The notes beneath the pieces were generated by a model that was given only the letters and a program-made list of their open reading frames with translations, made no database searches and was not told the origin of the DNA. A stretch of DNA of 64,000 nt from Somniosus microcephalus (taxonomy: Eukaryota): assembly GCA_052327205.1 (NCBI GenBank), contig CM126207.1, positions 62,868,001-62,932,000 on the forward strand, written 5' to 3'. Numbering within the stretch: the first letter of the stretch is position 1; every line of letters begins with the position of its first letter. Below are positions 5,954 through 62,498 of the stretch, piece by piece. The translations under genes were made by a program, and so were the position numbers.

Positions 5954-6874
5954 ATGGCAGGGGAGCTCACACCCGTGGAATGCACATCCTGTGCCATGTG
6001 GGAAGTCCTGGACACCTCCCATTGTCTGGCCGACCACATGTGTGGGAAGTGTCGTCAGCTACAGCAGCTCAAGCAGAGGTTACGGAGCTTGAGCGGCGGC
6101 TGCAGTCACTGCTGTGCATCCGCGAGGCTGAGAGCTACGTGGATAGCACGTTTCGGGAGGTGGTCACCCCGCAGCTTAAGAGCGTGCGGGCAGAGAGGGA
6201 ATGGGTGACCGCCAGACAGGTAGCGCAAGAGTCACCTGAGCCCATCTTGCTCAACAACCAGTATTCGGTGCTGAATACTGGTGAGGGCGATGGTTCCTCT
6301 GGGGAGTGCAGCCAGAGCACCATGGAAGGATCAGCTGCACGGGGGGTGGGGAGGAGGAGAGGGAGAGCAATAGTGATAGGGGATTCAATAGTTAGGGGAG
6401 CAGACAGGCATTTCTGCAGTCGCAGACGTGACTCCAGGATGGTATGTTGCCTCCCTGGTTCCGGGGTCAAGGATGTCACTGAACGGCTGCAGGGCATTCT
6501 GAGGGGGGAGGGTGAACAGCCAGAGGTCGTGGTCCATATCGGTACCAGCGACATAGGTAGAAAGAGACATGAGTTCCTGCAGGCAGAGTTTAGGAAGCTA
6601 GGAAAAAGGTTAAAAAGCAGGACCTCAAAAGTTAGTAATCTTTGGATTACTACCAGTGCCACGTGCTAGTGAGTACAGAAATAGGAAGAGAGAGAAGATG
6701 AATGTGTGGCTGGAGAGATGGTGTTGGAGGAAGGGCTTTAGATTCCTGAGGAATTGGAACCATTTCTGGGGGAGGTGGGACCTCTACAAGCCAGGCGGGT
6801 TGCACCTCAACAGGAACGGGACTAATATCCTCACAGGAGGATTTGCTAGTGCTGTTGGGGAGGGTTTAAACGAG
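5954..6874 (+). pseudogene. CR1 B ORF1 (Zn finger, coiled coil, SGNH esterase), frameshifted
   Basis: CTSC...CGKC, IGDSIVRG, HIGTSD, GLHL. Frameshifts near 6078 and 6642. Confidence 0.88.
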
Positions 6875-9487: not shown

Positions 9488-12451
9488 TCACTTGATCCCT
9501 TTTGCCTTAAGAAATATATCCAACTCTTTCTTGAATATATTTAATGAACTGGCCTCCACCGCCCTCTGTGGCAGAGAATTCCACAGGTTCACCACTCTCT
9601 GGGTGAAGAAATTCCTCCTCATTTCAGTCCTAAATGGCTTACCCCTTATCCTTAAACTATGACCCCTGGTTATTGACTCCCCGGCCATCAGAAACATCCT
9701 TCCTGCATCTAGTCTGTCCAGGCCTGACAGAATTTTATAGGTTTCGATGAGATCCCTTCTCAATCTTCTAAACTCCAGTGAGTATAAGCCCAATCGACAC
9801 AATCTCTCCTCATACGTCATTCCTGCCATCCCAGGTATCAACCTGGTGAATCTTCGCTGCACTCCTTCCATGGCAAGAACGTCCTTCCTCAGGTAAGGCG
9901 ACCAAAACTGCACACAATACTCAAGGTGCGGTCTCACCAAGGCCCTGTACAACTGTAGCAAGACATTCTTGTTCCTGGGCTCGAACCCTCTTGCTACGAA
10001 GGCCAACATACCATTTGCCTTCTTAACCGCCTGCTGCACCTGCATGCTTACCTTCAGTGACTGGTGCACAAGAACACCCAAGTCTCTTTGCACTTCCCCT
10101 TCTCCCAATCTATTGCCATTCAAATAATAATCTGCCTTCCTGTTTTTGCCACCAAAGTGGATAACCTCACATTTATCCACATTATAGTGCATTTGCCATG
10201 TTTCTGCCCAATCACCCAACCTATCCAAATCGTACTGGAGTTTCACAACATCCTCCTCGCAGCATACCCTCCCACCCAGCTTTGTGTCGTCTGCAAATTT
10301 GGAGATATTACATCCAATTCCCTCGTCCAGATCATTAATATATATTGTGAACAGCTGGGGTCCTAGGACCGATCCTTGCGGTACCCCACTAGTCACTGCC
10401 TGCCACTCGGAAAACGACCCGTTTATTCCAACTCTTTGCTTTCTGTCCGCCAACCAGTTCTCTATCCAAGTCAATACCTTGCCCCCAATCCCATGTGCCT
10501 TAATTTTGCACGCTAATCTCTTATGTGGGACCTTATCGAAAGCCTTCTGAAAGTCCAAATACACCACATCCACTGGTTCTCCCTTATCTATTTTACCAGT
10601 TACATCCTCAAAAAATTCCAGTAGATTAGTCAAGCATGATTTACCTTTTGTAAATCCATGTTGACTTTGTCCGATCCTGTCACTGTTTTCCAAATGCTCT
10701 GCTATTACATCTTTTATAATGGACTCTAGCATTTTCCCTACTACCGATGTCAGGCTTACCAGTCTATAATTCCCCGCTTTTTCTCTACCACCTTTTCTGA
10801 ATAGTGGGGTAACATTAGCTACCCTCCAATCCATGGGTACTGTTCCAGAGTCTATCGAGTTCTGGAAGATGACCAGCAATGCATCTACTATTTCTAGGGC
10901 CACTTCCTTAAGTACCCTGGGATGTAGATTATCAGGCCTTGGGGATTTATCGGCCTTCAGTCCCATCAATTTTCCTAACACCATTTCCCTACAAATACTG
11001 ATTTCTTTCAGTTCCACCCTTTCATCAGACCCTATGTTCCCCGGCATCTCTGGGAGGTTATTTGTGTCTTCCTTTGTGAAGACAGAACCAAAATATGTAT
11101 TTAGTTGGTCTGCCATTTCTTTGTTCCCCATTATAAATTCCCCCGATTCTGACTGCAAGGGACCTACGCTTGACTTCACCAATCTTTTTCTCTTCACATA
11201 TCTATAAAAGCTTTTACAGTCAGTTTTTATGTTCCCTGCAAGCTTACTCTCATATTCTATTTTCCCTTTCTTAATTAATCCCTTTGTCCTCCTTTGTTGA
11301 ATCCTAAACTGCTCCCAATCCTCAGGATTATTGCTTTTTCTGGCCAATTTATATGTCCTCTCCTTGGATCTTATGCTATGTCTAATTTCCCTTGTTAGCC
11401 ACAGTTGAGTCACCTTTTGGTTTAATTTTTATGCCAAACTGGGATGAACAAATTCTGTAGCTCATCCATTCGGTCTTTGAATGTTTGCCATTGCCTATCC
11501 ACCGTCAACCCTTTGAGTGCCATTCCCCAATCAATCCTACCCAACTCGCTCCTCAGACCATCGTAGTTTCCTTTATTTAAATTGAGGACCCTTGTCTCTG
11601 AGTCAACTACTTCATTCTCCATCTTAATGAAGAATTCGATCACATTATGATCGCTCCGACCCAAGGGGCCTCGTACAAGGTACAAGATTGCTAATTAAAC
11701 CTTTCTCGTTACATAATACCCAGTCTAAGATGGCCTGATCTCTGGTTGGTTCCTCGACATATTGGTCCAGGAAACCATCCCGTAAACACTCCAGGAATTC
11801 CTCCTCCACAGTATTGTTACTAATTTGGTTGGCCCAATCTATATGTAGATTAAAGTCACCCATGATGACTGCTGTGCCCTTATTGCACGCTTCTAATTTC
11901 CCATTTAATGCCATCCCCAACCTCCGCCTTACTGTTTGGAGGTCTATATACCACTCCCACTAACGTTTTTTCCCCTTGGTATTCCTCAATTCTACCCATA
12001 CAGATTCCACCTCATCAGAGCTAATATCCTTCATTACAATTGTGTTAATCCCTTCTTTAACCAGTAATGCTACCCCACCTCCCTTTCCTTTTTGCCTATC
12101 TTTCCTGAATATCGAATACCTCTGAATGTTGAGTTCCCAGTTTTGGCCATCCTTGAGCCACGTTTCCGTAATCCCAACCAAATCATATTCGTTTACCTCT
12201 ATTTGCGCAGCCAATTCATCCACCTTATTACAAATGCTCCTCGCATTAAGACACAAAGCCTTCAAGCTTGTTTTTTTAACGCTCTTAGACCTATTAGAAT
12301 TATTATTTACTGTGGCCACGTTTGATTTAAACCGTTGATTTCTCTGACTGCCACTTCTGTTTTTCTCCTTCCTATCTTTTGCTTTTATCCTTGTTTCCCT
12401 TTCCTCTGTCTCCCTGCTCAGGTTCCCAACCCCCTGCCATTTTAGTTTAAA
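9488..12451 (-). pseudogene. CR1 C ORF2 (APE endonuclease + reverse transcriptase); 641-codon RT part uninterrupted, endonuclease frameshifted
   Basis: [40 protein letters not shown]. Confidence 0.93.
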
Positions 12452-16283: not shown

Positions 16284-16860
16284 TATTTACTTCCCAACCT
16301 TGGTCACCTTGCAACCACGTCTCTGTAATGGCTATTAGATCAAACCCATTTATCTCTATTTGTGCCACTAGTTTGTCTATCATGTTATGAATGCTTTGTG
16401 CATTCAGATAAAGAGGCAGTAATTTAAATTTTTTACCATTATTCCCTGCTTTGACCTTATTCTCTGCTGCACTCTTACCATTAAACTCTCTGTCAGCTTT
16501 CTGTCACACTCTGCTTATTTTTACCCAAATCGCTACATTGCTCTATTGCCTTGACCTTTCTCTTTAGATTTCTAAATTTCCCCTCATCTGACCTCTCCCC
16601 CACCCCCCTTTTTTAGTTTGAAACCCTATCTACAACCCAAGTTATTTGATTTGCCAAGACGCTGGTCCCAGCCCGGTTTAAGTGGAGCCCATCCCGACGG
16701 GACCGCTCCCTCTTTCCTCAGTACTGGTGCCAGTGCCACATGAATCGAAACCCCTTCTTCCCACACCACTCTTTGAGCCACATATTTAACTCTCTGATCT
16801 GCTTGACCCTATGCCAATTTGCACGTGGCTCAGGTAGTAATCCAGAGATTATTACCCTGT
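16284..16860 (-). mobile_element. CR1 LINE A, 5' part (ORF1 end and endonuclease start)
   Basis: ITETWLQGDQGWEVN joins exactly to IPGYVMF at 5203. Confidence 0.88.
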
Positions 16861-19057: not shown

Positions 19058-19207
19058 TATGGCGACGAGAATAAAGTACGGAAGAGTTTTGGAGTATTCG
19101 GAAGAGGTGCTCGGGTTGGTTAGCAAACTAGTCGGAAAAGCATGAGGCTAGGCCGCGGGAGTCGAAACGGAGTTTGATTTTTTGGCTGAAGTGACCGGAC
19201 TCCAAGG

Positions 19208-22200
19208 ATGGCAGGAACGGTAGGCTCCATGGTACCTTTTGACAGCAAGTCGCAGTCTTGGGAGGAGTATTGTGAAATACTGGGCCATTTCTTTATGGCA
19301 AACGAGGTGGACAGTGCTGAAAAGAAAAGGGCCATTTTACTGAGTTGTGTGGGAGCGCAAACCTATACACGGATGAGGAATCTGCTGAGCCCGGAGCGGC
19401 CAGGAGAAAAATCTTTTGACGAGTTGGTGAGTCTACTAAAGAATCATTTCAATCCGAAATCTAGTGAAATAGTACAGAGATGGAAATTCAATTCGAGGAT
19501 TAGGAGGCCGGAAGAAAGCGTTACTGAGTATGTGGAGGAGCTTCGGAAGCTCGCACAGGACTGCAATTTTGGAAATGCGCTCACAGTCATGTTAAGGGAC
19601 AGACTAGTATGCGGAGTTAACGACGACAGTATACAGCAAAGGTTGCTGTCAGAAGATGGATTAACGTTTGAGACAGCACTTAAAAAAGCACAAGCCATGG
19701 AGATGGCTAACAAGGACATTAAGGACTTAAACAGTATGAGCAAGGAGAAATGGAGTAAACCAGTGGGAGGAGCTGTTTTCAAGATGGAAGCTGGCGTGAA
19801 AAGTCCACCAGTCGGGGTTGGGGATTGCTACCGATGTGGCGGGACGAGCCATTATGCAAAGGACTGCAGGTTTGCAAAGACAAAGTGCCACAATTGTGGA
19901 AAAATAGGGCACTTAAAGAAAGTCTGTAAAAGGGCAGTGAGTGAGAGAAGCAGTGCTAAAGGGGCAAAGCATGCTAAAGGGGGGAGGGAGAAGTACACAA
20001 AGCGGGCAAATTACATACAAGAGGAAGAGTCTAGTGAGGATGTTTTCACTATATACAGTATAGACACTTCAAGGCCCAACGTACCCCCTCTCACTCAGTA
20101 TTTGATAGTGAACAGAGGTCAAGTAAAGTTTGAGATTGACACCGGATGTAGTGTAACCATAATGTCGCAGACTGAGTACGCCAAGCTATGGGGGAAGCAA
20201 AAGTACCAGAGCTAGGTACATGCCCCATTAGTCTCAAAACCTACACAGGACAGAAGGTGGACATTTTGGGGGCGGCCGAAGTACAAGTGGAACACAAAGG
20301 AGTCACCAAAGAGCTTACGGTGGTAGTGGTAGCAGGGTCAGGGCCAAACCTGTTAGGGCGAGGGTGGATCAGTGAGTTGAGTGTGGACTGGCAGGCAATG
20401 AATAAAATGGTGGACAGTACAGAGGCACTGCAAGAAGTGCTGATGAAGCATGAGTTAGGACGAACTGGGCACCTTAAGGGGAGCCACAGCCAAGATTCAT
20501 GTAGCCAGTGATGCCACGCCTCATTTCTTTAAACCAAGGTCGGTACCTTTTGCAATGAAAACCAAGGTTGAGGCGGAACTAGATCGCCTGCTAAAGGACA
20601 AAGTAATAGAACCAGTGAAATTTTCAGACTGGGCGGCACCAATAGTCCCGGTATTGAAGCCCGATGGTAACGTAAGGGTGTGTGGTGACTATAAGTTAAC
20701 AGTGAACAGAGTATCATCACTGGAACAGTAACCCATTCCGAGAATGGAGGACATGTTAACATCGCTCGCTGGGGGAGAAAGATTCAGCAAACTGGACATG
20801 AGTCATGCGTATCAGCAGATATTGCTAGATGAAGAATCAAAAAAGTTTGTCACGGTGAACACGCACAAGGGGCTGTTCACGTATGCCAGGTTACCATTTG
20901 GTGTCAGTTCTAGCCCAGCAATATTCCAACGGACTATGGAGGGCATTCTGCAGGGCATTCCAAAGGTGGCCGTGTACTTAGATGATATTCTGCTAACAGG
21001 AAGTGACGATCAGGATCACTTAAAAACACTGGACAAAGTGCTACAGCGGCTGGAAGAGGCGGGGCTACGCCTGAAACGGAGTAAGTGTAGTTTCATGGAG
21101 AAGGAAGTTACATTCCTGGGACATCGGGTGGATGCCACAGGCCTCCATCCATTACCAGGGAAAGTGCGGGCAGTGCAGGATGCACCGGCACCCACCTCAG
21201 TGACTGAACTGAAAGCCTATCTAGGGCTCCTGAATTATTATAACCGGTTTCTTCCAAACTTATCGATGCTGCTGGCACCCCTGCACAAACTGCTGAGAAA
21301 GGAGGAGCCATGGCGTTGGGGGCCAGAGCAAGCGAAAGCGTTTCAGCAGTCAAAGGAGCTACTTCAGTCCAGCAGGGTGTTAGTACATTACGACGAGAAG
21401 AAGGAGCTGATAATGTCCTGCGATGCATCACCCTATGGAGTGGGGGCAGTGTTGGCCCACCGCATGCCAGATGGAGCAGAAAGGCCCATCGGGTTTGTTT
21501 CACACACGCTCACAGCTGCGGAAAAGAACTATTCACAGCTTGATAAAGAGGGGTTGGCCATTATATTTGGAGTAAAGAAATTCCATAAGTACATATATGG
21601 GAGGAAGTTTGTAATCAGTACTGACCACAAGCCTCTTATTAGCTTACTGAATGAGATGAAAGCGGTGCCTCAAATGGCATCACAGAGAATAATGAGATGG
21701 GCAGTAATACTAAGAGCCTATGAATATGTGATCACGTACAGAGCCGGCAAGGAAAACGGGAACGCGGATGCTCTCAGCCGCCTGCCCCTCTCAAAATCTC
21801 CTCGCAGTACTTCCCCTGAGGAGCACGTCCTGATGCTGGATCAGGAGATCAGTCCCCTGATGACTTCAGTGCAAATCCAGGGCTGGACAGCCAAGGACCC
21901 CGTTCTGTCAAGGGTCCGTGAGTATGTGTTGAAAGGCTGGCCAGATCACTGTGAGGGACCGGAGTTCGCGCCGTACAGACAGAGACAACACGAGCTCAGT
22001 GTCCAAGATGGATGTGTGCTATGGGGAGCACGCATCATAGTCCCAGAGCGGGGACGCTCTACTTTGATGGAACAGTTGCATCAATCGCACCCAGGAATGA
22101 CTAGAATGAAAGGACTGGCTAGGAGCTGCCTGTGGTGGCCTAACTTGGATGCTGAAATTGAGTCAAAGGTAAAGTCATGCACTATATGTCAGGAACAGAG

Positions 22201-23192
22201 GAAAGCACCTGCCGGGGCACCACTCCATCCCTGGGAGTGGCCCAGCAAACCCTGGAGGAGAATTCACATAGACTATGCGGGACCTTTTATGGGCAAAATG
22301 TTTTTGGTGCTGGTTGACGCTCACTCAAAGTGGATCGACGTTTATCCAGTGAGCTCTGCAATGACTGATGCCACACTGATTTGTCTCAGGAACAGCTTCA
22401 GCACGCATGGTATTCCAGAAATGATTGTATCCGACAATGCACAGTGTTTTGTTAGTGAAGGGAGCAAAGAATTCATGGTAAGGAATGGAATCACACGTCA
22501 CCTCGGCTCCATATCACCCAGCCTCAAATGGGTTAGCCGAGCGAGCCCTGCAGACTTTTAAGGAGTTCATGAGGAAGAGCTCAGGTGACACCCTGGAGAC
22601 CAAGCTCAATAGAGCCTTGTTTAGTTATCGTATAACACCCCAAGCTACCATGGGGCTTTCTCCGGCTGAGTTGATGATGGGGAGAAAGTTGCGGTGCATG
22701 TTAGACCTGATACACCCAGATCTCAAAAGCAAGGTTGAGACAAAACAAACAAACCAAAAAGCGTACCATGACAAACATACTAAAGCTCGCCATTTCGCCA
22801 TAGGGGACTCTGTGTACACCCGGAACTTCGGTTATGGACCTAAATGGATACCAGGACTAATCCAGGACATTACAGGACCTGTGTCATACTCCGTGTTACT
22901 AGGGGATGGTCGAGGGGTTTGTCGGCATGTGGATCAGCTTTTCAGCCGGCAGCAGGGGGAACTGCCTCAGATGGAACAAAGGGCAGTAGAGGAGGCTGTT
23001 CCAGGACCCAGCACGGCTTATAAGGTGCCAGTGGACACTGGTACTGCCAGGCCACAGCGGGACAGAGTAAAACCAACATCAGAGACTACTCCAATCTCAA
23101 GTGCGAATGAATCTGAGAATCCACCACAAGTGGAATTAAGACGTTCACAAAGGATTCGCAAGCAACCAGAAAGACTTATACAAACCTGTTAA
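19208..23192 (+). pseudogene. Gypsy 1 gag-pol (2 CCHC knuckles, protease DTG, RT YLDD, RNase H, integrase), disrupted
   Basis: Pieces 19208-20215, 20188-20511, 20744-22561 and 22485-23192. Frameshifts near 20195, 20455 and 22490; stop near 20730. Confidence 0.93.
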
Positions 23193-25451: not shown

Positions 25452-25670
25452 ACTGCAATCGGGGCAGAGACGCGCAGCAGCCAGAAAGGCGCTTTATTGC
25501 CACAAGGACCGCGGGAGCGGCGGGGCAACAGCGCAACAGCGCAGAAGAAGCACTGAAAAGCAGTTTTAAAATAAACTGCAATCGGGGCAGAGACGCGCAG
25601 CAGCCAGGAAGGCGCTTTATTGCCTCAAGGACCGCGGGAGCGGCGGGGCAACAAGAGCAGCAGCGCAAGG
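25452..25670 (+). repeat. Direct duplication (about 123-bp period) in the Gypsy 2 leader
   Basis: ACTGCAATCGGGGCAGAGACGCGCAGCAGCCAG... at about 25452 and 25575. Confidence 0.85.
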
Positions 25671-25874
25671 AAGCGTATACACGGGAAAAGAAAGGCAGGA
25701 AGGACAGCTGGGAGGCGTGGACAGCAACAGCGCGGAAATCGCCATCTTGAGTCGGCGGGGCAAGAAGACAAGCGCGGGAAAAGCCGCCAAGCGCGGGAAA
25801 AGCCGCCATCTTTAATTTTTAAAAAAGTCATCATATTAAATAATATCCGAAGGGAAAGAAGAAACTCAGCAAGG

Positions 25875-28800
25875 ATGCCGAAAACAGGTAACATCACTGC
25901 CTTCGACAATGATGTGGAAGATTGGGCCACTTATGTGGAACGCATCGAAGTTTACTGTAGTACGAATGATGTACCGGATGATAAGAAAGCACTAACCCTA
26001 TTAAACTCGATGGGTGCGAAGACGTACGGGTTATTAAGGAACCTGGTAACCCCAGACAAACCGGTAGAAAAGAGTTTCGCGGATATTGTTACTATCCTGC
26101 AAGAGCATTTAAACCCGACACCGCTGTTGGTAGCGGAACGGTTTAAATTCTACAGAAGAATTCAACATAAAGAAGAAAGCAACGCTGAATTCCTAACAGA
26201 ACTGTGCAAGTTAGCAAAGTACTGCCAGTTCGGAACAGGACTAGCAGACGCACTGAGAGATAAGTTTGTGTGTGGGATCCTAAGGGAAGGAACCCAGAAG
26301 CGACTGCTAGAGGAAAAGGATCTTACGCTGGACAAAGCTTTCAGCATTGCAGCATCCCACAAGGCAGCAGCACGGGGCGCTGCAGAGATACAGCAAAGGC
26401 CACTGGAATTCAGCACCAATGAAATGGCATTGGGCGCAGTAAAGTGCTATCGTTGCGGAAGGACAACGCATGACCAGAACCAGTGCTGGTTCAAAGGTAA
26501 AGAATGCAGGCAATGTGGCAAACTTGGTCACATAGCGAGAGTATGCCGGTCAGGAAAGAAGACCAGCAGCAAAAAGTCACCACAGGAGAAGTACAAAAAA
26601 GTACACAAGGTGACAGAGAACAGTTCGGATGAACAGAAGACGGATTCAGACTCCAGCAGCAAGGAACTGGGTTGTCTGAAAATACATAATGTGGGTAACA
26701 CAGCAGACCACCAAACTATCTGGGTCATGCTCCAGATAGCAGGAGTCCAAGTGAAGATGGAGCTGGACACAGGGTCGGCATTAACGGTCATAAATAAGCA
26801 AGACTACAAAAGGTTATTCTCGCATTTTCCCCTGAGGGATATGAAGATTGTATTGAAAACATACACAGGGCAAAAAGTATACCCCAAAGGAAAAATAAAA
26901 GTAAATGTGGTCTACAATGGTAAAGAAAGTCAGGAAATGGACTTGTACGTGTTACCTGATGGAGGTCCGCCACTACTAGGACGGGAATGGATCAGGCGAA
27001 TAAAATTGGACTGGCATTCCATAAAAGCACTGACTGTGGATGCCTGTAAGGAGGACGACGTCAAACCTAAACGACTGTCCAAAATCTTAGACGATGCTAG
27101 GGAGGTGTTCCAACAGGGACTGGGAACACTGAAAGGAATGACTGCAACCATCAAGGTTGAAGAACAAGCAAACCCAAAATTTTTCAAAGCCAGACCGGTG
27201 CCCTATGCGATACGACCTGCTGTGGAAGCAGAGCCGGAAGGGCTAGAATGTTCAGGGGTACTGTCGAAGGTGGACTGGAGCAAATGGGCTATACCCATTG
27301 TTCCTGTCATGAAGCGTTCGTTGAGCAACAAGCCTGGGGAACCTGGGAAGGTTCGCATCTGTGGCGATTTCAAGATCACTGTTAATCCAGTTCTTCACAC
27401 GGTGCAATATCCGCTTCCGCGGATCGAAGATATCTTCGCTTCGCTGTCTGGCGGAAAGCACTTCACCAAGATAGACCTGGCACAGGCGTACCTACAGATG
27501 GAAGTTGATGAAGCGTCACGACAGTATCTCACGATCAACACACATAAGGGCTTATATCAGTATAATAGGCTGGTTTTTGGAGTGGCATCAGCTCCAGCGA
27601 TTTGGCAAAGGGCCATGGAGCAGGTATTGCAGGGAATCCCAGGCACACAATGCTACCTGGATGACATCCTGATTACAGGAGATAACGATAATGATCACCT
27701 CGCGAATTTGGAGCAGGTGCTCATCAGATTGAAAGAATATGGGCTAAGAGCTAATCGCCAGAAATGCGAGTTCTTTCAAAAGCGAATCTCGTACTGCGGC
27801 CACGTCATTGACCAGGAGGGGCTCCATAAGTCCCCTGACAAGATCGAAGCTGTAGTCAAGGCTCCAGCACCGAAAAATGTATCCCAGTTGAGGTCGTTCC
27901 TCGGGTTGGTTAACTATTACCACAAGTTTCTTCCAAATTTATCCACGGTGTTACACCCACTAAACACTCTTTTGCAAACGGGAATACCATGGAAGTGGAG
28001 CGATGATTGTAAGCGGGCTTTTCAAAAGAGCAAGGCATTGATCACCTCTAAGGAAGTGTTGGCTCACTTTAACCCAACGCTACCTATTCGCTTAGCTTGT
28101 GATGCATCTCCATATGGTATCGGGGCAGTGCTCTCACATAAGTTTCCAGATGGCTTGGAAAGGCCAGTCGCTTTTGCATCCAGATCATTGACCTCCGCTG
28201 AGCGCAATTATGCTCAGATAGATAGGGAGGCTCTCAGCCTCGTGTGGGGAGTTAAGAAATTTAACCATTACCTGCACGGCCAAAAGTTTACGCTGCTGAC
28301 AGATCACCAGCCGTTGGTTTCCATTTTTAACCCTAAGAAGGGTGTTCCGGTAATGACGGCGCAGAGGCTTCAGAGATGGTCCCTTTTCCTAGGGGCACAT
28401 CAGTATGATATTGAGTTCAAAGGTACAAAGCAGCATGGTAATGCTGATGGGCTGTCGCGCCTGCCACTACCTACAGCGGAAGAGGCACCGGCAGTTGACC
28501 CTGTCGAGATATTTCACTCGACCATCATCGAATGCTTACCAGTCACCAATGCGGGTATTGAGAGAGAGAGACCCGAAATGACCCGACACTGTCTCGGGTC
28601 TACGATTTGACAGTGAAGGGATGGCCAGCACATGGCGAATCACCGTTATCAGCATTCTCAGCCAGACGAGAACAGCTGTCCGTATGTCAAGGAACATTGA
28701 TGTATGGAACAAGGGTGATTATTCCTCCTAAATTAAGGGAGAGAGTTCTAAAAGAATTGCACAAAGGTCATCTGGGGGGAGTCAAGATGAAAAGCCTTGC

Positions 28801-29830
28801 TAGGGCTTATGTGTGGTGGCCAGGTATAGACAAACAAATAGAGGATCTGACTAAAAGCTGCTCAGGGTGCCAAAAAGTTCAGAACGCACCTCCAATTGCA
28901 CCGCTGCATCCGTGGGAATGGCCTTCAGCCCCATGGCAACGTGTGCATATCGACTTTGCAGGTCCATTCATGGATTCCATGTTTTTGATAGCAGTAGACG
29001 CACATTCTAAATGGCCAGAAGTGATTAAGATGTCGACCACTACCTCTGAGAAGACGATCGCAGTTCTAAGAACCATATTTGCAAGGAATGGATTGCCGGA
29101 GCAAATATGTTCAGACAACGGACCACAGTTCGTGTCAGAAGAATTCCAGAAATTCATGAAAAAGAATGGGGTGAAACACTATACATCTGCCCCATATCAT
29201 CCAGCTACAAATGGGTTGGCCGAGAGATTTGTACAAACGTTCAAAAAGGCAATAAAGGCCATGAGTGAAGATCATATTCCACTACAACACAAGGTGGACA
29301 ATTTCCTAATGGCGTATCGAAACGCCACGCATGCAGTGACAAATCAAAGCCCTGCCATAATGTTCTATAACAGAAGGTTGCGGTCCCGGTTGGATTTGTT
29401 AAAACCCAATGTGCGACGGGAAGTCGAAAACAAGCAATTCCAGCATGTAAATAAAAAGGCCACTCGTAGTTTTGAAATAGGACAACCAGTGATGGCCAGG
29501 GACTATAGGGATGATAAATGGCAACCTGGAACAATCTGTGCATGACAGGGACCTTTGATGTACACGGTAGACGTTGGAGAGAACATAATACGACGTCATG
29601 CTGACCAACTTGTGGAATCGAGAACAAGGGTCGACCCCATGTCTACGGCAGAGACACCAGTTGAAGAACCTATTGAGCCTGTAGCATCTACCTCAGACTC
29701 GAACGTATTGGATGATGTTGAATCCATAGGAGATCAATTGGATGAGTCACCCCAGCAACGGGAACCAGAGATCCCTGAAAAGCGTTATCCGGGCCGGATC
29801 AGGAGGCCTCCTCAGAGACTGAATCTTTGA
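25875..29830 (+). pseudogene. Gypsy 2 single-ORF gag-pol, near intact
   Basis: ATG 25875 (MPKTG); CCHC x2, LDTGS, YLDD, CDAS and integrase motifs. One frameshift in a (GA)n run at about 28560-28571 and one TGA at 29543. Confidence 0.93.
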
Positions 29831-33587: not shown

Positions 33588-34318
33588 CTTGAAATGGAAA
33601 AAAAACAAGACTAAGGTCAAGCCAGTGTGATTTGGTCACTCAAATATTTTCTGCCAGGATTCAGCTAGGAAAGAATCCATAATATTAAAGCTCCTACTCA
33701 ATTGAATTTTTCACCCTTACAATCAAAACATTAGAATTATGGGTATATCAAAGAAACACTAAAATGCATTATACTTGACCTACATAAGCGGTCTAACCCA
33801 CCTAATTCCAAAAATAAAGAGTCATGGGGGAGAAATTCAGTTGGTTAAGAGGACGATAAGTGGGGCACAAGGTGGCTAGCGCCCGGGCGCGGCGATACCT
33901 GCACCTCTCGTGAAATTGAGCGGACATTTAGCGGCGGCGCTAAACCGCAACGCCCGCTCAGCTGCGCGCGCAGATCCTGACGTCATTTCATGGTGCAACG
34001 CCCTTGGGGCGCCCCGAACCGGAAATTCAGTGGCACCCTCCTCCTTTCCGCCTGTCGCTCCCAGCGACTGGTTGACTGGAACGGTTCCCAGTTGCTGTGG
34101 GGCTGGGGGGGCGCTACTTAAAGGGGGCTCTTCCTGGCTTCTTTGTGGTAGCCATTTCTGGACCACTCCTCCTGTGAGAGAGAGAGAGATTTGCAGAGAG
34201 ACAAAGGGAGAGAGCTTTCTGCATTGAGTCAGCGCTCGCAGAGGTACTTTTGGCTTCTGACCAGAACTATGTAGTTGGTTTGCTTTTTCACTGGCATAAC
34301 CTTGAGTGGCCACATACA

Positions 34319-35458
34319 ATGGGGGCTGCAATGGATGGGAACGTTGGGCTTCTCCATTACATTGGGAGGGCACAGAGACGCCGAGAGAGAGTGCCAATCA
34401 TGGCCAGACGGCGGAGGGCCAACAGGCGTCGGCACACAAGACCTTACCGTCCCAGGGTTTTCCGCCAACAGTTCTCATACCTCAACATGTCTGAGGAGCA
34501 GTGTTTTCGGAGGCTGCGATTCAGCAGGGAGGTGGTCACTGAGCTCTGCCACCTGCTTCAGCCAGATCTTCAGCCTCAACTGAGGAGGAGGACGTCTTTG
34601 TCGGTGGCAGTGAAGGTGACAGTGGCACTCAACTTCTATGCCACCGGCTCCTTTCAATCCACTACTGGGGACATTGCCAATATCTCCCAGTTCGCGGTGC
34701 ATTGCTGCATCTGTCAAGTCACGAATGCCCTCTTTAAAAGGAGACGTCAGTACATTTCCTTCCCCATGACCCCGGACAAGCAGCAAGAGCACACAGTGGG
34801 ATTTGCAAGAATAGCGGGCTTCCCCATGGTCCAGGGCGCCATTGACTGCACGCATGTGGCTTTGTGGGCGCCGCAAGAGAACGTCGAGGATTACTGCAAC
34901 CGGAAGGGGTTCCATTCGTTGAATGTCCAGTTGGTCTGTGACCACATACAGCTGATACTCGCTGTCAATGCCCGCTTTCCAGGCAGCAGCCACGATGCCT
35001 TCATCCTGCGCCAGACTTCTGTGGCAGACCTTTTCGAGGCCCCGGCTCACCCAGGAGGCTGGCTTCTCGGAGACAAGGGCTATCCTCTGTGTACCTGGCT
35101 GATGACCCCGCTCCGTTCGCCCAGCACCCCTGCTGAAGAACGATACAATGAGAGCCATCAAGCGACCAGGATCATCATTGAGCACACAATCAGCGTGCTC
35201 AAGCAACGGTTCCGCTGTCTGAACCATTCCGGATGAGCCCTTCAGTACTCACCTGAGCGAGTCTCCCATTTCGTTGTTGTGTGCTGCATGCTGCATAACC
35301 TGGCAATCCTCAGGACTCAGCCACTGCCACCAGACATTGGAGCACCAGCAGAGGAGGAGGAGGAGGAAGAGGAGGAGGAGGAGCAGCAGCACCAAGATGG
35401 GAGGGAGGCACAAAGTGCAAGGGCCGTCCATCAGCGGCTTATAGCAAGTCGGTTCTAG
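34319..35458 (+). pseudogene. Harbinger DDE transposase (HARBI1-like), one in-frame TGA at 35234
   Basis: GAIDCTH, LGDKGYP, IIEHTI. The frame continues past the stop as ALQYSPERVSHFVVVCCMLHN...ASRF*. Confidence 0.92.
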
Positions 35459-49050: not shown

Positions 49051-49746
49051 TCAGTTATTGCAGTTACAGTATTTCTCATGCAAGTCAAAAAGTTGTGGGT
49101 TCAAACAAAATCCTGAAAAGAGTCGGCAGACCCGGAGAAGGCAGAGGATAAAGAGCATGGGAGGCAGAGGACAGCGGACCTGAAAGGAGTCAGCAGCTCC
49201 GGAGAAGACAGAGGATAAAGAGCGCGGGAGGCCGAGGACAGAGGACCTGAAAGGAGTCGGCAGCCCCGGAGAAGGCAGAGGATAATTCAGAGCAGCTGAA
49301 GGCAGTTAAGTAGGGAAACTAGGCCTATAAAAACTGGCTTCGCAGTGCGATCTGCACTGAGTGCAGTTTGCACAGAGTGCTGAGAGTTGAGTGGGTGAGG
49401 GAGTTAGGTGGGAGAGAAGTGGAAGGAGGAGCTCGCTTGCTTCGCCTTTGCTTTCCCTAACTTTTTACTCTGTAGGATTTGGTTCTTACTTTACACCCAG
49501 GAAAGAGTCCGAGAGCAGGAGCAGTCAATCAACAACAACAACTGCAAAACCGCTAAAGTGACATCACAACCTAGGAAGGAGCTGATTGGTAAGTAGGACC
49601 TGGTGAGTATTTCTACAGTCCAGTCGTTAAAGTAAAAGTAAGGTCTCTAGTTTAGAGTGAGTAATGTTTAAAGCAAAGAAAGATCCCTAGTGTATTTAAT
49701 ATTCTTTAATTTAGAGGAAGTAAAGGGAGTAAATTAAGGGTAGGAC

Positions 49747-50697
49747 ATGGCAGGGCAGCTCGGCAGTGTGGAGTGCTCCTCCTGTGCTATGTGGGAAGTC
49801 AGGGACACATTCGGTGTCCAGGGCGAACACATGTGCAGGAAGTGTCTCCGGCTGCAGCTACTCGAAATCCGCATTTTGGAGCTGGAGCTGCGGCTGGAGT
49901 CACTGTGGAGCATCCGCGTGGTTGAGATCTTCGTGGATAGCACGTTTAACGAGGTGGTCATACCGCAGGTAAAGAGTGCACAGGCAGAAAGGGAATGGGT
50001 GACCACCAGACAGAGTAAAAGAACTAGGAAGGTAGTGCAAGTGTCCCCGGGGTCCATCTCCCTCTTCAACAGATTTTCCATTTTGGATATTGCTGGGGGA
50101 GATGGTTTCTCAGGGGAATGCAGCAAGAGCCAAGTCCGTGGCACTACGAGTGACTCAGCTGCACAGGAGGGGAGGAAAAAGAGTGGGAGAGCAATAGTGA
50201 TAGGGGATTCTATCCTAAGGGGAACAGATAGATGTTTCTGTGGCCGCAGACATGACTCCAGTATGGTATGTTGCCTCCCTAGTGCCAGGGTCAAGGATGT
50301 CACTGAGTGGCAGCAGGACATTCTGAAGGGGGATGGTGAACAGCCAGAGGTCGTGGTCCATATCGGTACCAACAACATAGGTAGAAAGAGGGACGAGGTC
50401 CTGCAAGCAGAATATAGGGAGCCAGAAGATAAATTAAAAAGCTGGACCTCAAAGGTAGTAATCTCAGGATTACTCCCAGTGCCACGTGCTAGCGCGAGCA
50501 GAAATAGGAGAATAGACCAGATGAATGCGTGGCTGGAGAGATGGTGTAGGAGGGAGGGATTTAAGTTCCTGAGGCATTGGGACCGATTCTGGGGAAGGTG
50601 GGACCTGTACAAGCTGGACGGGTTACACCTCGGCAGAATCGGGACCAATATCCTCAAAGGGGGGTTTTCTAGTGCTGTTGGGAATGATTTAAACTAG
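49747..50697 (+). CDS. CR1 E ORF1p, 316 aa, uninterrupted (Zn finger, coiled coil, SGNH esterase)
   Basis: CSSC...HMCRKC, IGDSILRG, HIGTNN, DGLHL. Confidence 0.88.
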   Translation: MAGQLGSVECSSCAMWEVRDTFGVQGEHMCRKCLRLQLLEIRILELELRLESLWSIRVVEIFVDSTFNEVVIPQVKSAQAEREWVTTRQSKRTRKVVQVSPGSISLFNRFSILDIAGGDGFSGECSKSQVRGTTSDSAAQEGRKKSGRAIVIGDSILRGTDRCFCGRRHDSSMVCCLPSARVKDVTEWQQDILKGDGEQPEVVVHIGTNNIGRKRDEVLQAEYREPEDKLKSWTSKVVISGLLPVPRASASRNRRIDQMNAWLERWCRREGFKFLRHWDRFWGRWDLYKLDGLHLGRIGTNILKGGFSSAVGNDLN

Positions 50698-51380
50698 TTT
50701 GTCAGGGGGCTGGGAACCTAAGTGTGGGCCCAGAACAGAGAGAAACAACAAAGCTGGAAGTGCAAGTTAGAAAAGTAGTCAGCAAAACTAGTAGGGAGCA
50801 GAAACAAAGGCCAACAGTAAAGAAGGTCAAAGTGCAGAAAAATATTAAACAGGCAAAGTTGAAGGCACTTTATTTAAATGCACGTAGCATTCGCAACAAG
50901 GTGGATGAATTAATGGCACTAATAGAAGTAAATGGGTATGATGTAATTGCCATTACAGAGACATGGTTGCAGGGTAACCAAAGCTGGGAACTGAATGTTC
51001 CAGGGTACTCAACATTTAGGAAGGACAGACAAAAAGGAAAAGGAGGTGGCGTAGCGCTGTTAATAAGGGATGAGATCGGTACGGTAGAGATAAAAGATCT
51101 TGGCTTGGCAGATCGTGATGTAGAACTGGAATCAGTTTGGGTGGAGCTAAGAAACAGCAAAGGGCGGAAAACATTGGTGGGAGTTGTGTATAGGCCACCA
51201 AACAGCAGTGGTAATGTAGGGCACAGTATCAATCAAGAGATTAGAAGTGTATGTAACAAGGGCAATACGGTAATCATGAGGGACTTTAATCTACATATTG
51301 ACTGGGCAAATCAAATTACCACCAATGATGTGGATGACGAATTCTTGGAATGCATGCAAGATGGTTTCTTGGATCAGTAT

Positions 51381-52058
51381 CAACAGGTGGCAACAGGTGA
51401 CATCACAGAATGAAATTTCATCTGCCAAGAGGTCTTGACAGATGAAATATCAGTGTTTCACAGCTGTTTGAAGCTGTCAAACACTGAGTCTGACTTCTAA
51501 CCTGAGTCCTTCTACACAGACTCAGTTAGAACTCTCACCGGCAATGAAAGCTGAATGCTGTCACTTTTGACAGCTCGCAGCCATTTTGCTTTCAGTGCCG
51601 GCTGAGTGATGGACTCCCGAAACCTAGAGGAAGAAAGGCTGTTTAGGTAAGTACAGGTAATTTAAACTTCTTTACACACTTTAGACACACCAAACACACT
51701 TACCTTTGCACTCATGCACCCATCACTCACCTGAACACCGACATCTCGACCCCTCCAAGTCCTTCAACCCGACGGCCCGCCTGCTCTACCCTGGCGTGGT
51801 TTGGAGCCGTCGGGAATCCCACACGACACCCTTCAAAATAGGGATTAGGCTAAAAACTGCCTGTTAACAGGCAGTTAATTGGCACTAATCCCTTCCCGCC
51901 TCGGGTCGGCGGGTCCCAGTGCGGGGTGGGTACCCGCCTCCTTTGAAACTTACATGGAGGCGGGTTTTGGGCGGGATGGTGTTGGGACCCCCGAATTCAG
52001 GATTTTAGCCCCCTGCACGCCTAAAAGCCCGCCTCACAGCACACTGAAAATCGACCCC
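51381..52058. mobile_element. Left-truncated Harbinger MITE (family of 14776-15594) with adjacent CR1 deletion
   Basis: High similarity to 14935-15594; ends TGAAAATCGACCCC|TTT. Confidence 0.88.
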
Positions 52059-56984: not shown

Positions 56985-59373
56985 TCAGTCCAGAATTGCC
57001 AGAACAAAGTGCAAAGTTGGCCGGAAGTGCAGACCTGAGCGGGTGCGGCGGCAGCGGCTTAAAGGGAACTGAGCGGCGACTTAAAAAAAGTGACGTCACA
57101 GGACAGCAGGCAGGCGATTGGTTGGCGAGTATTACAGCTCTTTTGCTCTCTAGGTTAGGTAAGTGAATTAAATTCAGAACTGGGAGAGTATTAACTACTG
57201 TAACTTTATTGAATTAATAACTAAATTAACTAATTAAAACTAAAAATTTAAAGTAAAAATAATCGTTTGAATGAATACTGCAACTAATTATATAAATAAT
57301 ATAAGGTTAGATAGGGATGGCAGGGCAGGTGGTGTGTCATAACTGCAGCATGTGGGAGTTGGTGGAGACCAATGAGATCCTGAGCAACTACATCTATGGT
57401 AAGTGCCTGCAGCTCGAGGACTTCGGCTCAGAGTTGTTGAGCTGGAATCCGAGCTACAGATATGCGAAGCATCAGGGGAGGGGCAGTCACACCCCTTAGG
57501 TTAAGCAGTACTTTAGAGTTAGTCAATGGTCAGGAGGATGTGACTGTGAGTCAGGGAGCTATGGAGACCCAGGGTATGGTGATGGAGGAGCCTCAGCCCT
57601 TGACCTTGTCCAACAGGTATGAGGTACTTGCTGCCTGTATGGATGAGAACAAGGACTGCAGGCAGGATGGGCAAACTGACCACTCGAGGGGGGGGGGGCG
57701 AAGGAATGTGGTAGTGGTAGGTGACAGTTTAGTCAGGGGGATAGATACTGTTCTCTGCAGCCACGACAGGGAGTACCAAAGGCTGTGTTGCCTGCCCAGT
57801 GCCAGGGTTAAGGATATCTCCTCGCGGCTGGAGAAAACTTGGAGTGGGAGGGGGAGGATCCAGTTGTCGTGGTCCACGTAGGAACCAACAACATAGACAG
57901 AACTAGGAATGAGGTTCTGCTGAGGGAGTTTGAGGAGCTAGGATCCAAATTAAAAAGCAAAACCTCAAAGGTAATAATCTCTGGATTGTCACCTGAGCCA
58001 TGCGCAAATTGGCATAGGGACAAACAGATTAGAGGTATAAATGCGTGGCTCAGAGTGGTGTGGGAGGAAGGGGTTTCAGTTCATGGGGCACTGGCACCAG
58101 TACTGGAGAAAGAGGGATCTGTTCCAATGGGATGGGCTCCACTTAAACCAAGCTGGGACTAGTGTCCTGGTGAATCAAATAACTAGGGCAGTAGAAAGGG
58201 CTTTAAACTAATGAAGGAGGGTGGGAACATTCAGGAAAGAGTACATTTAAAAGCAGCAAGAGAAATGTCATGGCTCTAGAGCAGAGTAGAGTTTTGGGTA
58301 AAAATAAGCAGAGGGTCAGGAAAGGACAGAGAGAGTAACAAAGGTAATAGGGCAGCAGTGACTAAGGTGACATCAGCAAAAAATAGAAAAAAGTCAAAGC
58401 TAAAGGCACTATATCTGAATGCGCGAAGCATTCACAACAAAATAGATGAATTAATAGCGCAGATAGAAATTAATAGGTTTGATCTAATAGCCATTACCAA
58501 GACGTGGTAGCAAAGCGGCCAAGGTTGGGAACTAAATATTCCAGGATACTTAACTTTTAGAAGAGATAGGTAAAATGGAAAAGGAAGAGGGGTAGCCCTG
58601 ATAATAAAGGATGGGATAAAGACAGTAGAGAGATGGGATGGAGAGTGATAGAAGATTTGAGGTTAGGATCAGATCAGCCATGATCTTATTGAATGGTGGA
58701 GCAGGCTCGAGGGGCCGATTGGCCTACTCCTACTCCTATTTCTTATGTTCTTATGTTTAAAGGATCTTAGCTCTGAAAATCAAGAAGTAGAATCAGTTTT
58801 GTTGGAGCTAAGAAACAGCAAGAGGCAGAAATCATTGGTGGAAGTTGTTTATAGACCCCCAAACAGTAGTTGTAATGTAGGGCAGAGTATAAATCAGAAA
58901 ATTAGAGGCGCATGTAACAAGGGTAATACAATAATCATGAGGGACTTTAATCTACATATAGACTGGTCAAACTAAATTTGCAGTAATAGTGTGGAGGACA
59001 AATTCATGGAATGTATACAAGATAGTTTTCTAGATCAGTATGTTCAGGAACCAACAAGGGAACAGGCTATTTTAGATCTAGTATTGTGCAATGAGAAAGG
59101 GTTAATTAATAACCTTGTAGTAAAGGGGCCTTTAGGGAAGAGTGACTATAATATGATAGAATTTTATTTAAAGGAGGACCAAGAAATTGATAAAGAAATG
59201 GAAAATTGAATGAGACTAAACTAGTAAAAGACATAAAAACAGACTGTAAAAGCTTCTATAGGTATGTAAAAAGGAAAAGATTAGTGAAAGTAAATGTGGG
59301 TCCCTTACAGGCTGAGACAGGAGAAATTATAACGGGGAATAAGGAAATGGCAGAGAAATAAAACAAATACTTT
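56985..59373 (+). mobile_element. CR1 LINE F 5' half (ORF1 57317-58211 decayed, endonuclease), with a short CR1 3'-end insert at about 58634-58757
   Basis: CHNC, VGDSLVRG, HVGTNN, LNARSI; ends at NKYF. Confidence 0.88.
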
Positions 59374-61665: not shown

Positions 61666-61993
61666 TTATGACTGAAGAGTCACTGGAACTCAGTAAGACA
61701 CTTCTCAATGTCCATTCAGATCTGTCCAATAAGGGGCACTTTTGGAAAAAGATATTATACTGAATGACAACACATTACCAGAAACTTCACATGGACATTG
61801 GCTAAACCTCTCAAGTGGCTACCCATGTGTCTTGTTAGTTGCTATGCTTGCAGTAGGATGAGGGTGAGTATGAGGAGTGGCTGGTGAGATGGGGAAGTGA
61901 TAAAATAGATAGGGTTGGTTGGAGGTGTCCTGGGGAGGTCTCTTCCGCCCTTGGAAAGGAATAGAACCTCCCTGCATGCTGTGACTCCCTCCA

Positions 61994-62498
61994 TATCTGC
62001 CACAGAAGTCTGGTGCAGGATGAAGGCATCGTGGCTGCTGCCTGGAAAGTGGGCATTGACAGCGAGTATCACAGGAATGGAAGCCCTTTCGGTTGCGGAA
62101 ATCCTCGGCATTCTCTTGCGGTGCCCGCAAAGCCACATGCGTGCAGTCAATGGCACCCTGCACCATGGGGAAGCCCGCTATCCTAGCAAAGCCCTTTGCG
62201 CGTTCTTGCTGCTTGTCCGGGGTCATGGGGAAAGAGATGTACTCTCGTCTCCTTGTAAAGAGGGCATTTGTTACCTGACGGATGCAGCAATGCACCGTAA
62301 ACTGGGAGATATTGGCGATGGTCCCAGTAGCTGATTGAAATGAGCCGGTGGCATAAAAGTTGAGAGCCACTGTTAAATTCACTGCCACTGACAGAGACGT
62401 CCTGCTCCTCAGTTGAGGCTGCAGATCTGGCTGAAGCAGGTGGCAGAGCTCAGTGACCACCTCCTTGCTGAATCGCAGCCTTCAGAAACAGTGCTTCT
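61994..62498 (-). pseudogene. Harbinger transposase fragment, same family as 34319-35458
   Basis: VTELCHLLQPDLQPQLR...GAIDCTHVALRAP...RKGFHS. Confidence 0.9.

Follow-up and report, generated by a model that had tools for sequence, protein, structure and literature searches.

The heptamer G_GGA_AAC is the slippery site of PEG10 and SRV-1, and in the arterivirus nsp2TF system a C-rich box lies about 10 nt downstream of the frameshift site. The nsp2TF frameshift is stimulated by nsp1beta together with a poly(C)-binding protein (PMC5009743, in part; 'in part' marks sources available as a portion of their text or supplement). UUUAAAC is an efficient -1 frameshift site, and quadruplexes placed behind it can yield as much as about 7% shifting when tested in reporters (PMC3919603, in part); no natural quadruplex-stimulated frameshift was known to the available portion of a 2016 review (PMC5009743). 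Among LINEs, ORF2 of the Dictyostelium elements TRE5-A and TRE3-A is said to require a -1 frameshift, which the available part of PMC5911963 states without a signal or a test. Because of this statement, CR1 would not be the first LINE for which frameshifting is claimed.

In most vertebrates, the dominant retrotransposons are CR1-group elements (PMC13343379, in part), which make up 11.8% of the chicken model chromosomes (PMC11835228, in part). The translation of their often AUG-less ORF2 is left unaddressed in the literature examined. No claim of frameshifting in CR1 was found in full-text literature; older CR1 papers or Repbase notes might hold a remark. The terms 'frameshift', 'overlap' and 'translat' are absent from the main text of the 2026 CR1-group paper (PMC13343379), 'frameshift' is absent from the main texts of PMC4120745, PMC3905857, PMC2881922 and PMC4245944, and where the word appears in PMC1925062, PMC4700185 and PMC11835228 it concerns indels or LTR elements. 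The available portion of the 2016 review makes no mention of CR1 and favours unusual initiation for L1 (PMC5009743). From the comparisons described below, we consider it likely that esterase-type CR1 elements produce their reverse transcriptase (RT) by programmed -1 ribosomal frameshifting, as an ORF1-ORF2 fusion.

CR1 junctions in the window and across the genome

The window, that is, the whole stretch of 64,000 nucleotides of Somniosus microcephalus DNA that was analysed, contains five CR1 ORF1/ORF2 junctions. A sequence-only reading had described a heptamer and an ORF1 end at each of them, and all five were recovered at the same positions and letter for letter. The features are as follows.

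49747..50697, plus strand: ORF1 of CR1 copy E, with N-terminal Cys pairs, a C-terminal SGNH/GDSL esterase and the ending L-N-stop
50670..50672, plus strand: family-wide -1-frame stop (TAG), 5 codons 5' of the heptamer; 5' bound of ORF2
50685..50687, plus strand: -1-frame TGA, private to copy E (1/30 family-E loci)
50688..50694, plus strand: candidate slippery heptamer U_UUA_AAC of copy E, in the ORF1 frame; intact in 28/29 family-E copies
50688..51410, plus strand: -1 frame of copy E, 241 codons and then broken; a basic linker of ~60 codons, then APE endonuclease
50695..50697, plus strand: ORF1 stop TAG, immediately 3' of the copy E heptamer
50705..50714, plus strand: G-rich box G5-NN-G3, candidate stimulator, starting 11 nt after the copy E heptamer
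50913..50915, plus strand: first in-frame ATG of copy E ORF2, 3' of LYLNARS (50868-50888)
6865..6871, plus strand: U_UUA_AAC heptamer of copy D; stop lost in this copy
12445..12451, minus strand: U_UUA_AAC heptamer of copy C; -1 frame unbroken into the endonuclease
16616..16622, minus strand: TTCAAAC, decayed heptamer of an old copy
58202..58213, plus strand: U_UUA_AAC heptamer of copy F, then TAATG; this ATG lies in frame with ORF2
19190-23189 and 25575-29542, plus strand: gypsy-like LTR retrotransposon gag-pol regions, open frames of up to 1011 codons; translations judged by eye
34178-35233, plus strand, and 61822-62481, minus strand: Harbinger-type transposase-derived nuclease-like open frames, judged by eye

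The ORF1 frame of copy E comprises 317 codons (49744-50694, Met being codon 2), matches the GDSL/SGNH esterase family PF13472 (E 1.7e-9) and ends in GAT TTA AAC TAG. Its -1 frame carries the endonuclease (Pfam PF03372, PF14529) and, as had been noticed, is unbroken from the heptamer into the endonuclease in both copies E and C. Across families, TA occupies positions +1/+2 after the heptamer in 13/14 representatives. Other details of the earlier description belong to single copies: the TGA beside the copy E heptamer is a private mutation, found in 1 of 30 family-E loci. Among the four residues listed before Leu-Asn, D, G and A are real, and V drops out, its codon occurring in 2/100 listed copies of the subfamily. 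The TCA mismatch of the copy at 16622 is present and represents decay, being found in 1 of 100 listed subfamily copies, of which 94 keep TTT (counts for this subfamily refer to the first 100 of 460 matches). In the window, TTTAAAC is found 22 times, compared with an expectation of 11.6 +/- 3.4 (1/100 shuffles reached 22); the meaningful point is less this excess than the placement of the heptamer at the end of ORF1.

The nearest named homologues of ORF1 are from sharks and rays, and the elements bear the hallmarks of CR1: an SGNH esterase in ORF1 (PF13472, in the window copy and in metagenome loci L121 and L127), APE endonuclease and RT in ORF2 (PF03372, PF14529, PF00078), and a short tandem-repeat 3' tail with no poly(A) (3' ends of L201-L203 and L214). 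In the 6.4-Gb genome of S. microcephalus, 160 loci were gathered by five protein searches (the best 20-30 of lists with 20-150 matches); 158 carry the anchor motif and 146 are distinct. Two of the query sets omitted the last ten codons, and the others lean to L-N protein ends, not to particular codons. The U_UUA_AAC-stop end of ORF1 is intact in 137/146 distinct copies from five families, TTTAAAC being kept in 53/53, 29/32, 28/29, 24/29 and 3/3 copies by family. The phase of the endonuclease could be read in 115 copies and is -1 in 96, 0 in 8 and +1 in 11; 82 in-phase copies have an open linker between heptamer and endonuclease. In the youngest family the endonuclease is in the -1 frame in 49/49 copies, whereas in family F, the oldest, this holds for only 7/17. 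Family F was likened by eye to published SquAca_CR1 rows (PMC13343379 supplement, in part).

Several further observations concern individual loci and the 5' UTR. Loci L091-L120 and L201-L203 form a very young CR1 family of near-identical copies with intact 322-codon ORF1s and tandem repeats in the 5' UTR, suggesting recent activity. A 783-codon fused ORF1-ORF2 frame at L255 was rejected as a single-copy indel in a G-run upstream of the heptamer. In several CR1 families the 5' UTR contains two or three near-perfect splice-donor motifs, GTAAGT or GTGAGT, one of them just 5' of the ORF1 ATG (window ~49603 (+), ~5870 (+) and ~13560 (-); loci L094, L239 and L008), adjoined by a TGACGTCA box that we take to be CRE-like. 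The donor motifs may act as U1-binding sites protecting the RNA, and no spliced product matching them was found. TTTAAAC in the 5' UTR of two families was also considered and set aside, as it is not conserved in the others. At six near-identical loci (L259, L260, L273, L280, L281 and L283) the CR1 5' UTR is followed by unrelated sequence, and these loci probably constitute a non-autonomous or chimeric family. L317, a family-C copy truncated at its 5' end, lies within a gypsy-like integrase fragment; over 13 letters, the flank of this copy resembles a splice joint between donor and acceptor.

The heptamer and the phase of ORF2 in distant relatives

According to the sequence-only reading, it is the nucleotide heptamer, and not just the peptide, that is constrained. 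Within the genome this claim is weak when taken alone, since silent sites are unsaturated: identity at four-fold sites among shark families is 0.47-0.76, and 19/65 invariant-residue columns also keep an invariant codon. A comparison confined to sharks cannot settle whether DNA or peptide is constrained. The claim gains its support from distant relatives, in which the class of the heptamer switches. Identity at four-fold sites between sharks and metagenome elements is only 0-0.41; TTA AAC is invariant in 8/8 lineages from the two sources together, a constancy that none of the other five invariant Leu columns shares.

The metagenome set comprised 80 loci, 22 of which were inspected, with about 11 proving to be LINE junctions; the weaker matches among the 22 were unrelated or lacked the motif. 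Scans of viral contigs and of bacterial-genome contigs for related loci found no relatives. In metagenome DNA, L127 and L132/L128 carry U_UUA_AAC, L121/L131 and L125 read CAG GGA AAC, and L130 reads CCG GGA AAC, so that G_GGA_AAC is seen after two different preceding amino acids. L129 has G_UUA_AAC, one base off the rule, despite an intact 973-codon ORF2, and the junctions of L198 and L124 are broken or non-canonical. From the heptamer, L127, L129 and L131 have unbroken endonuclease-RT frames of 947-996 codons in -1. This switch of heptamer class in step with the codon boundary, together with a preceding residue that fits the codon ending required by each class, is the strongest evidence for the proposed slippage.

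Protein homologues point in the same direction. The motif DGLHL is present in 127/185 ORF1 homologues; 72 of the 127 end in L-N, among them named sharks, rays, a frog, turtles, lizards and a teleost, and 55 do not. The residue before L-N has 12 identities, and its codon is unable to end in T in 1/56 distinct tails, compared with 27/56 one position earlier. Residues with pyrimidine-only codons are found before G-N or K-N in 0/19 tails versus 17/56 before L-N. Because the tails are related by descent, the Fisher P values of these comparisons are too small. The K-N class, with a predicted A_AAA_AAC, is known as protein alone. In a quick esterase tree, L-N, G-N and K-N ends are mixed within one branch (SH-aLRT 97), and a seven-member branch is entirely without any of these endings. 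Four proteins (P0112, P0164, P0178 and P0184) end in G-F-x or F-F-x, endings that would be compatible with heptamers of the form G_GGU_UUU or U_UUU_UUx; the only DNA for ends of this type (L198) is degenerate. L121, L125, L127 and L129, elements with an esterase ORF1 and an endonuclease-RT ORF2, branch apart from all named vertebrate proteins, in contrast to the finding of the esterase ORF1 type only in vertebrate groups (PMC4120745, in part). P0007, a shark-type CR1 ORF1 that is listed as an SGNH hydrolase of Pseudomonas aeruginosa and comes from a contig of 4 kb, is probably host contamination.

The phase of ORF2 is kept across linkers that have little else in common. The heptamer-to-endonuclease linkers are 23-73 codons long, share little sequence and are open in -1 in 12/12 representatives, of which eight shark ones were chosen as open and four metagenome ones were unselected. 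Ten of the 12 are closed in both other frames, and in the two shortest frame 0 is open as well. The first Met of the unselected L121 comes after 63 open -1 codons (shuffle P about 0.001). It had been stated that the first Met follows the catalytic LNARS motif; this applies to family E, where 10/11 open copies have no AUG before it, and does not hold in general. An in-frame AUG precedes the endonuclease in 45/48 open copies of the youngest family (mostly at codon 43, in strong context), in 11/19 of family C, in family H (codon 16), in most of family F (TAATG) and in 4/4 intact metagenome elements. Overall, it is located at codon 3, 16, 21, 28, 38, 43 or 63, or is lacking. Since the -1 frame is open 5' of usable AUGs, this arrangement suggests that ribosomes enter at the heptamer.

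Published CR1 consensus rows, the only tetrapod DNA in the comparison, extend the pattern to other vertebrates. A motif search of the PMC13343379 supplement (in part), which shows presence with no denominator, gave 23 matches to TTTAAACTA; by eye, and not from verified frames, 17 were called as ORF1/ORF2 junctions and six as lying elsewhere. The 17 junction rows are from alligator (2), crocodile (3), bullfrog, coelacanth, bowfin, teleost Crack, chimaera, rays (2) and sharks (5). The alligator, crocodile, bullfrog, coelacanth, chimaera, ray and shark rows have the heptamer and stop, mostly with the G-run. The ScyCan row has TAATG with the ATG, judged by eye, in the ORF2 frame, as in family F. 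In the portion of the PMC4316615 supplement that was available, matches were internal to ORF2 only.

The downstream G-rich box and alternative explanations

A run of at least four G begins 8-13 nt past the heptamer in 9/9 representatives (background 2-11%) and is present in 124/133 copies of this genome. It starts at +11 in 3/5 published crocodilian rows, as in sharks, whereas the bowfin and teleost rows show it weakly or not at all (PMC13343379 supplement, in part). The conservation of a G-run at this distance from the CR1 heptamer is new here. Hundreds of RNA reads from related subfamilies match as far as ~21 nt beyond the heptamer and diverge from there on, a limit that would mark the edge of a conserved cassette. 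Neither minimum-energy folding nor duplex scans, which left pseudoknots unmodelled, found a conserved hairpin or pseudoknot after the heptamer; folding z-scores were between -1.8 and +2.1 in 27/28 windows and -4.0 in one. Long-range duplex scans and lists of C-runs found no shared long-range partner for the G-box. A quadruplex was predicted in 6/14 representatives, mostly two-tier and of marginal energy, and in 0/5 of the metagenome ones. We tentatively propose that, in jawed vertebrates and in more distant relatives alike, the esterase-type CR1 frameshift might be driven by this G-rich box ~10 nt downstream and not by a pseudoknot, the box being either read by a protein or folded as a quadruplex; we hold this proposal with clearly less confidence than the frameshift itself. 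If a protein reads the box, it may be a host G-run binder or ORF1p. The G-box could instead reflect Gly codons of the -1 frame.

The conserved letters and the G-box might also be a reinitiation signal, by which ribosomes terminate at the ORF1 stop and start again close by, at an AUG or at a non-AUG codon. Reinitiation is the accepted route for bicistronic LINEs, for example SART1 (UAAUG) and mammalian L1 (PMC2881922, PMC5009743, both in part), and the TAATG of family F and of the ScyCan row (in part), with its ATG in the ORF2 frame, together with in-frame AUGs in other families, some of them in strong context, would suit it. The position of the AUG is not conserved, however, and an in-frame AUG at or near the stop is a feature of family F only; in family E, 10/11 open copies lack one ahead of the catalytic motif, and the frame stays open 5' of the AUG where there is one. 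Reinitiation also leaves unexplained why UUUAAAC is exchanged for GGGAAAC and why the run straddles a codon boundary, and we regard it as unlikely. A constraint on the peptide, by which the esterase requires a C-terminal Leu-Asn, TTA AAC follows from codon bias and common descent, and the phase of ORF2 is inherited with no meaning of its own, would agree with the invariance of L316 and N317 of ORF1 in 25/25 aligned proteins and with the unsaturated silent sites of shark families. Yet TTA accounts for only 2-4 of the 10-19 Leu codons in ORF1 stretches, relatives replace Leu with Gly or Lys, and some esterases lack the ending altogether. The preceding residue follows the third base required by each heptamer class, and the phase is kept over many linker lengths. 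The class switch largely contradicts the peptide explanation, which we consider highly improbable.

Much the same low probability is assigned to a spliced ORF2-only mRNA, in which donors of the 5' UTR would be joined to a CAG just past the ORF1 stop. Several families do have GTAAGT/GTGAGT motifs in the 5' UTR, families C, D, E and G have CAG|G after the stop, and the genome contains one match to the pattern of a joined donor and acceptor. That single match has no 5' UTR upstream and stands against 4,251 unspliced copies; the joined form of the second donor has 0 genomic matches, and 0/60 examined non-GT loci (30 of 60 and 30 of 552 matches) are joined to the junction. Families F and H and the metagenome elements lack the CAG. 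No donor-to-junction joint was present in 16,800 + 26,511 (43,311) RNA reads of a related organism, which are mostly 90-95% alike, so that short splice anchors may be missed. Almost no support for splicing was thus found in the sequences compared.

Proposed mechanism and comparison with known systems

The frameshift-fusion reading, put forward from the window alone, is supported by the class switch, by the -1 phase held over many linker lengths and by linkers that are open 5' of the AUG. The junctions combine X_XXY_YYZ in the 0 frame with a downstream ORF that is in -1 and open from the heptamer; a stimulatory hairpin or pseudoknot 5-9 nt downstream was not found. According to the proposed mechanism, most ribosomes would halt at UAA or UAG and release ORF1p, whereas a minority would slip by -1 with the last two ORF1 codons in the P and A sites and would translate the basic linker of 23-73 codons into the endonuclease and RT. 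The outcome would be a Gag-Pol-like ratio of ORF1p to fusion protein. The pause would probably come from the adjacent stop and the G-rich box 8-13 nt downstream, which may bind a protein or form a G-quadruplex, and not from a classical pseudoknot. No protease domain was found in the scanned ORFs, and the fusion would therefore probably stay whole. A protein search found no naturally fused esterase-RT proteins, which is weak evidence.

If the frameshift reading is true, the CR1 enzyme unites esterase, endonuclease and RT in one fusion protein, in which the esterase is covalently attached to the RT, the ratio of ORF1 to ORF2 products is fixed by the frameshift, and both the annotation of intact CR1 and the design of assays change. 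The general view that bicistronic LINEs reinitiate would be broken, and CR1 would provide a naturally occurring frameshift site that lacks an obvious RNA structure. Should the G-box also act as proposed, the dominant repeat of most vertebrate groups would contain a regulated, Gag-Pol-like switch. The junction cassette of ~80 nt makes the question directly testable.

The host family is canonical CR1, with a type IV esterase ORF1, an APE-RT ORF2 and a short tandem-repeat 3' tail (PMC4120745, PMC13343379, both in part). Like SART1 and mammalian L1, CR1 has a bicistronic LINE RNA in which ORF2 would depend on the translation of ORF1 (PMC2881922, in part), and family F shares UAAUG with SART1; in contrast to these elements, which make a separate ORF2p, the AUG of CR1 is optional and a slippery heptamer is kept. 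TRE5-A and TRE3-A are also APE-RT LINEs, but they belong to the L1 clade and have a different ORF1. With arterivirus nsp2TF, CR1 shares a slippery site accompanied by a short low-complexity box instead of a structure, although the CR1 box is G-rich and no binding protein is known for it. Compared with retroviral gag-pol and coronavirus 1a/1b, CR1 is a non-LTR element in which no conserved hairpin or pseudoknot and no protease domain were found, and its stop lies immediately after the heptamer; as in those systems, the heptamer pattern and phase are found at the end of a structural ORF with the enzyme ORF in -1, and CR1 switches between known heptamer classes.
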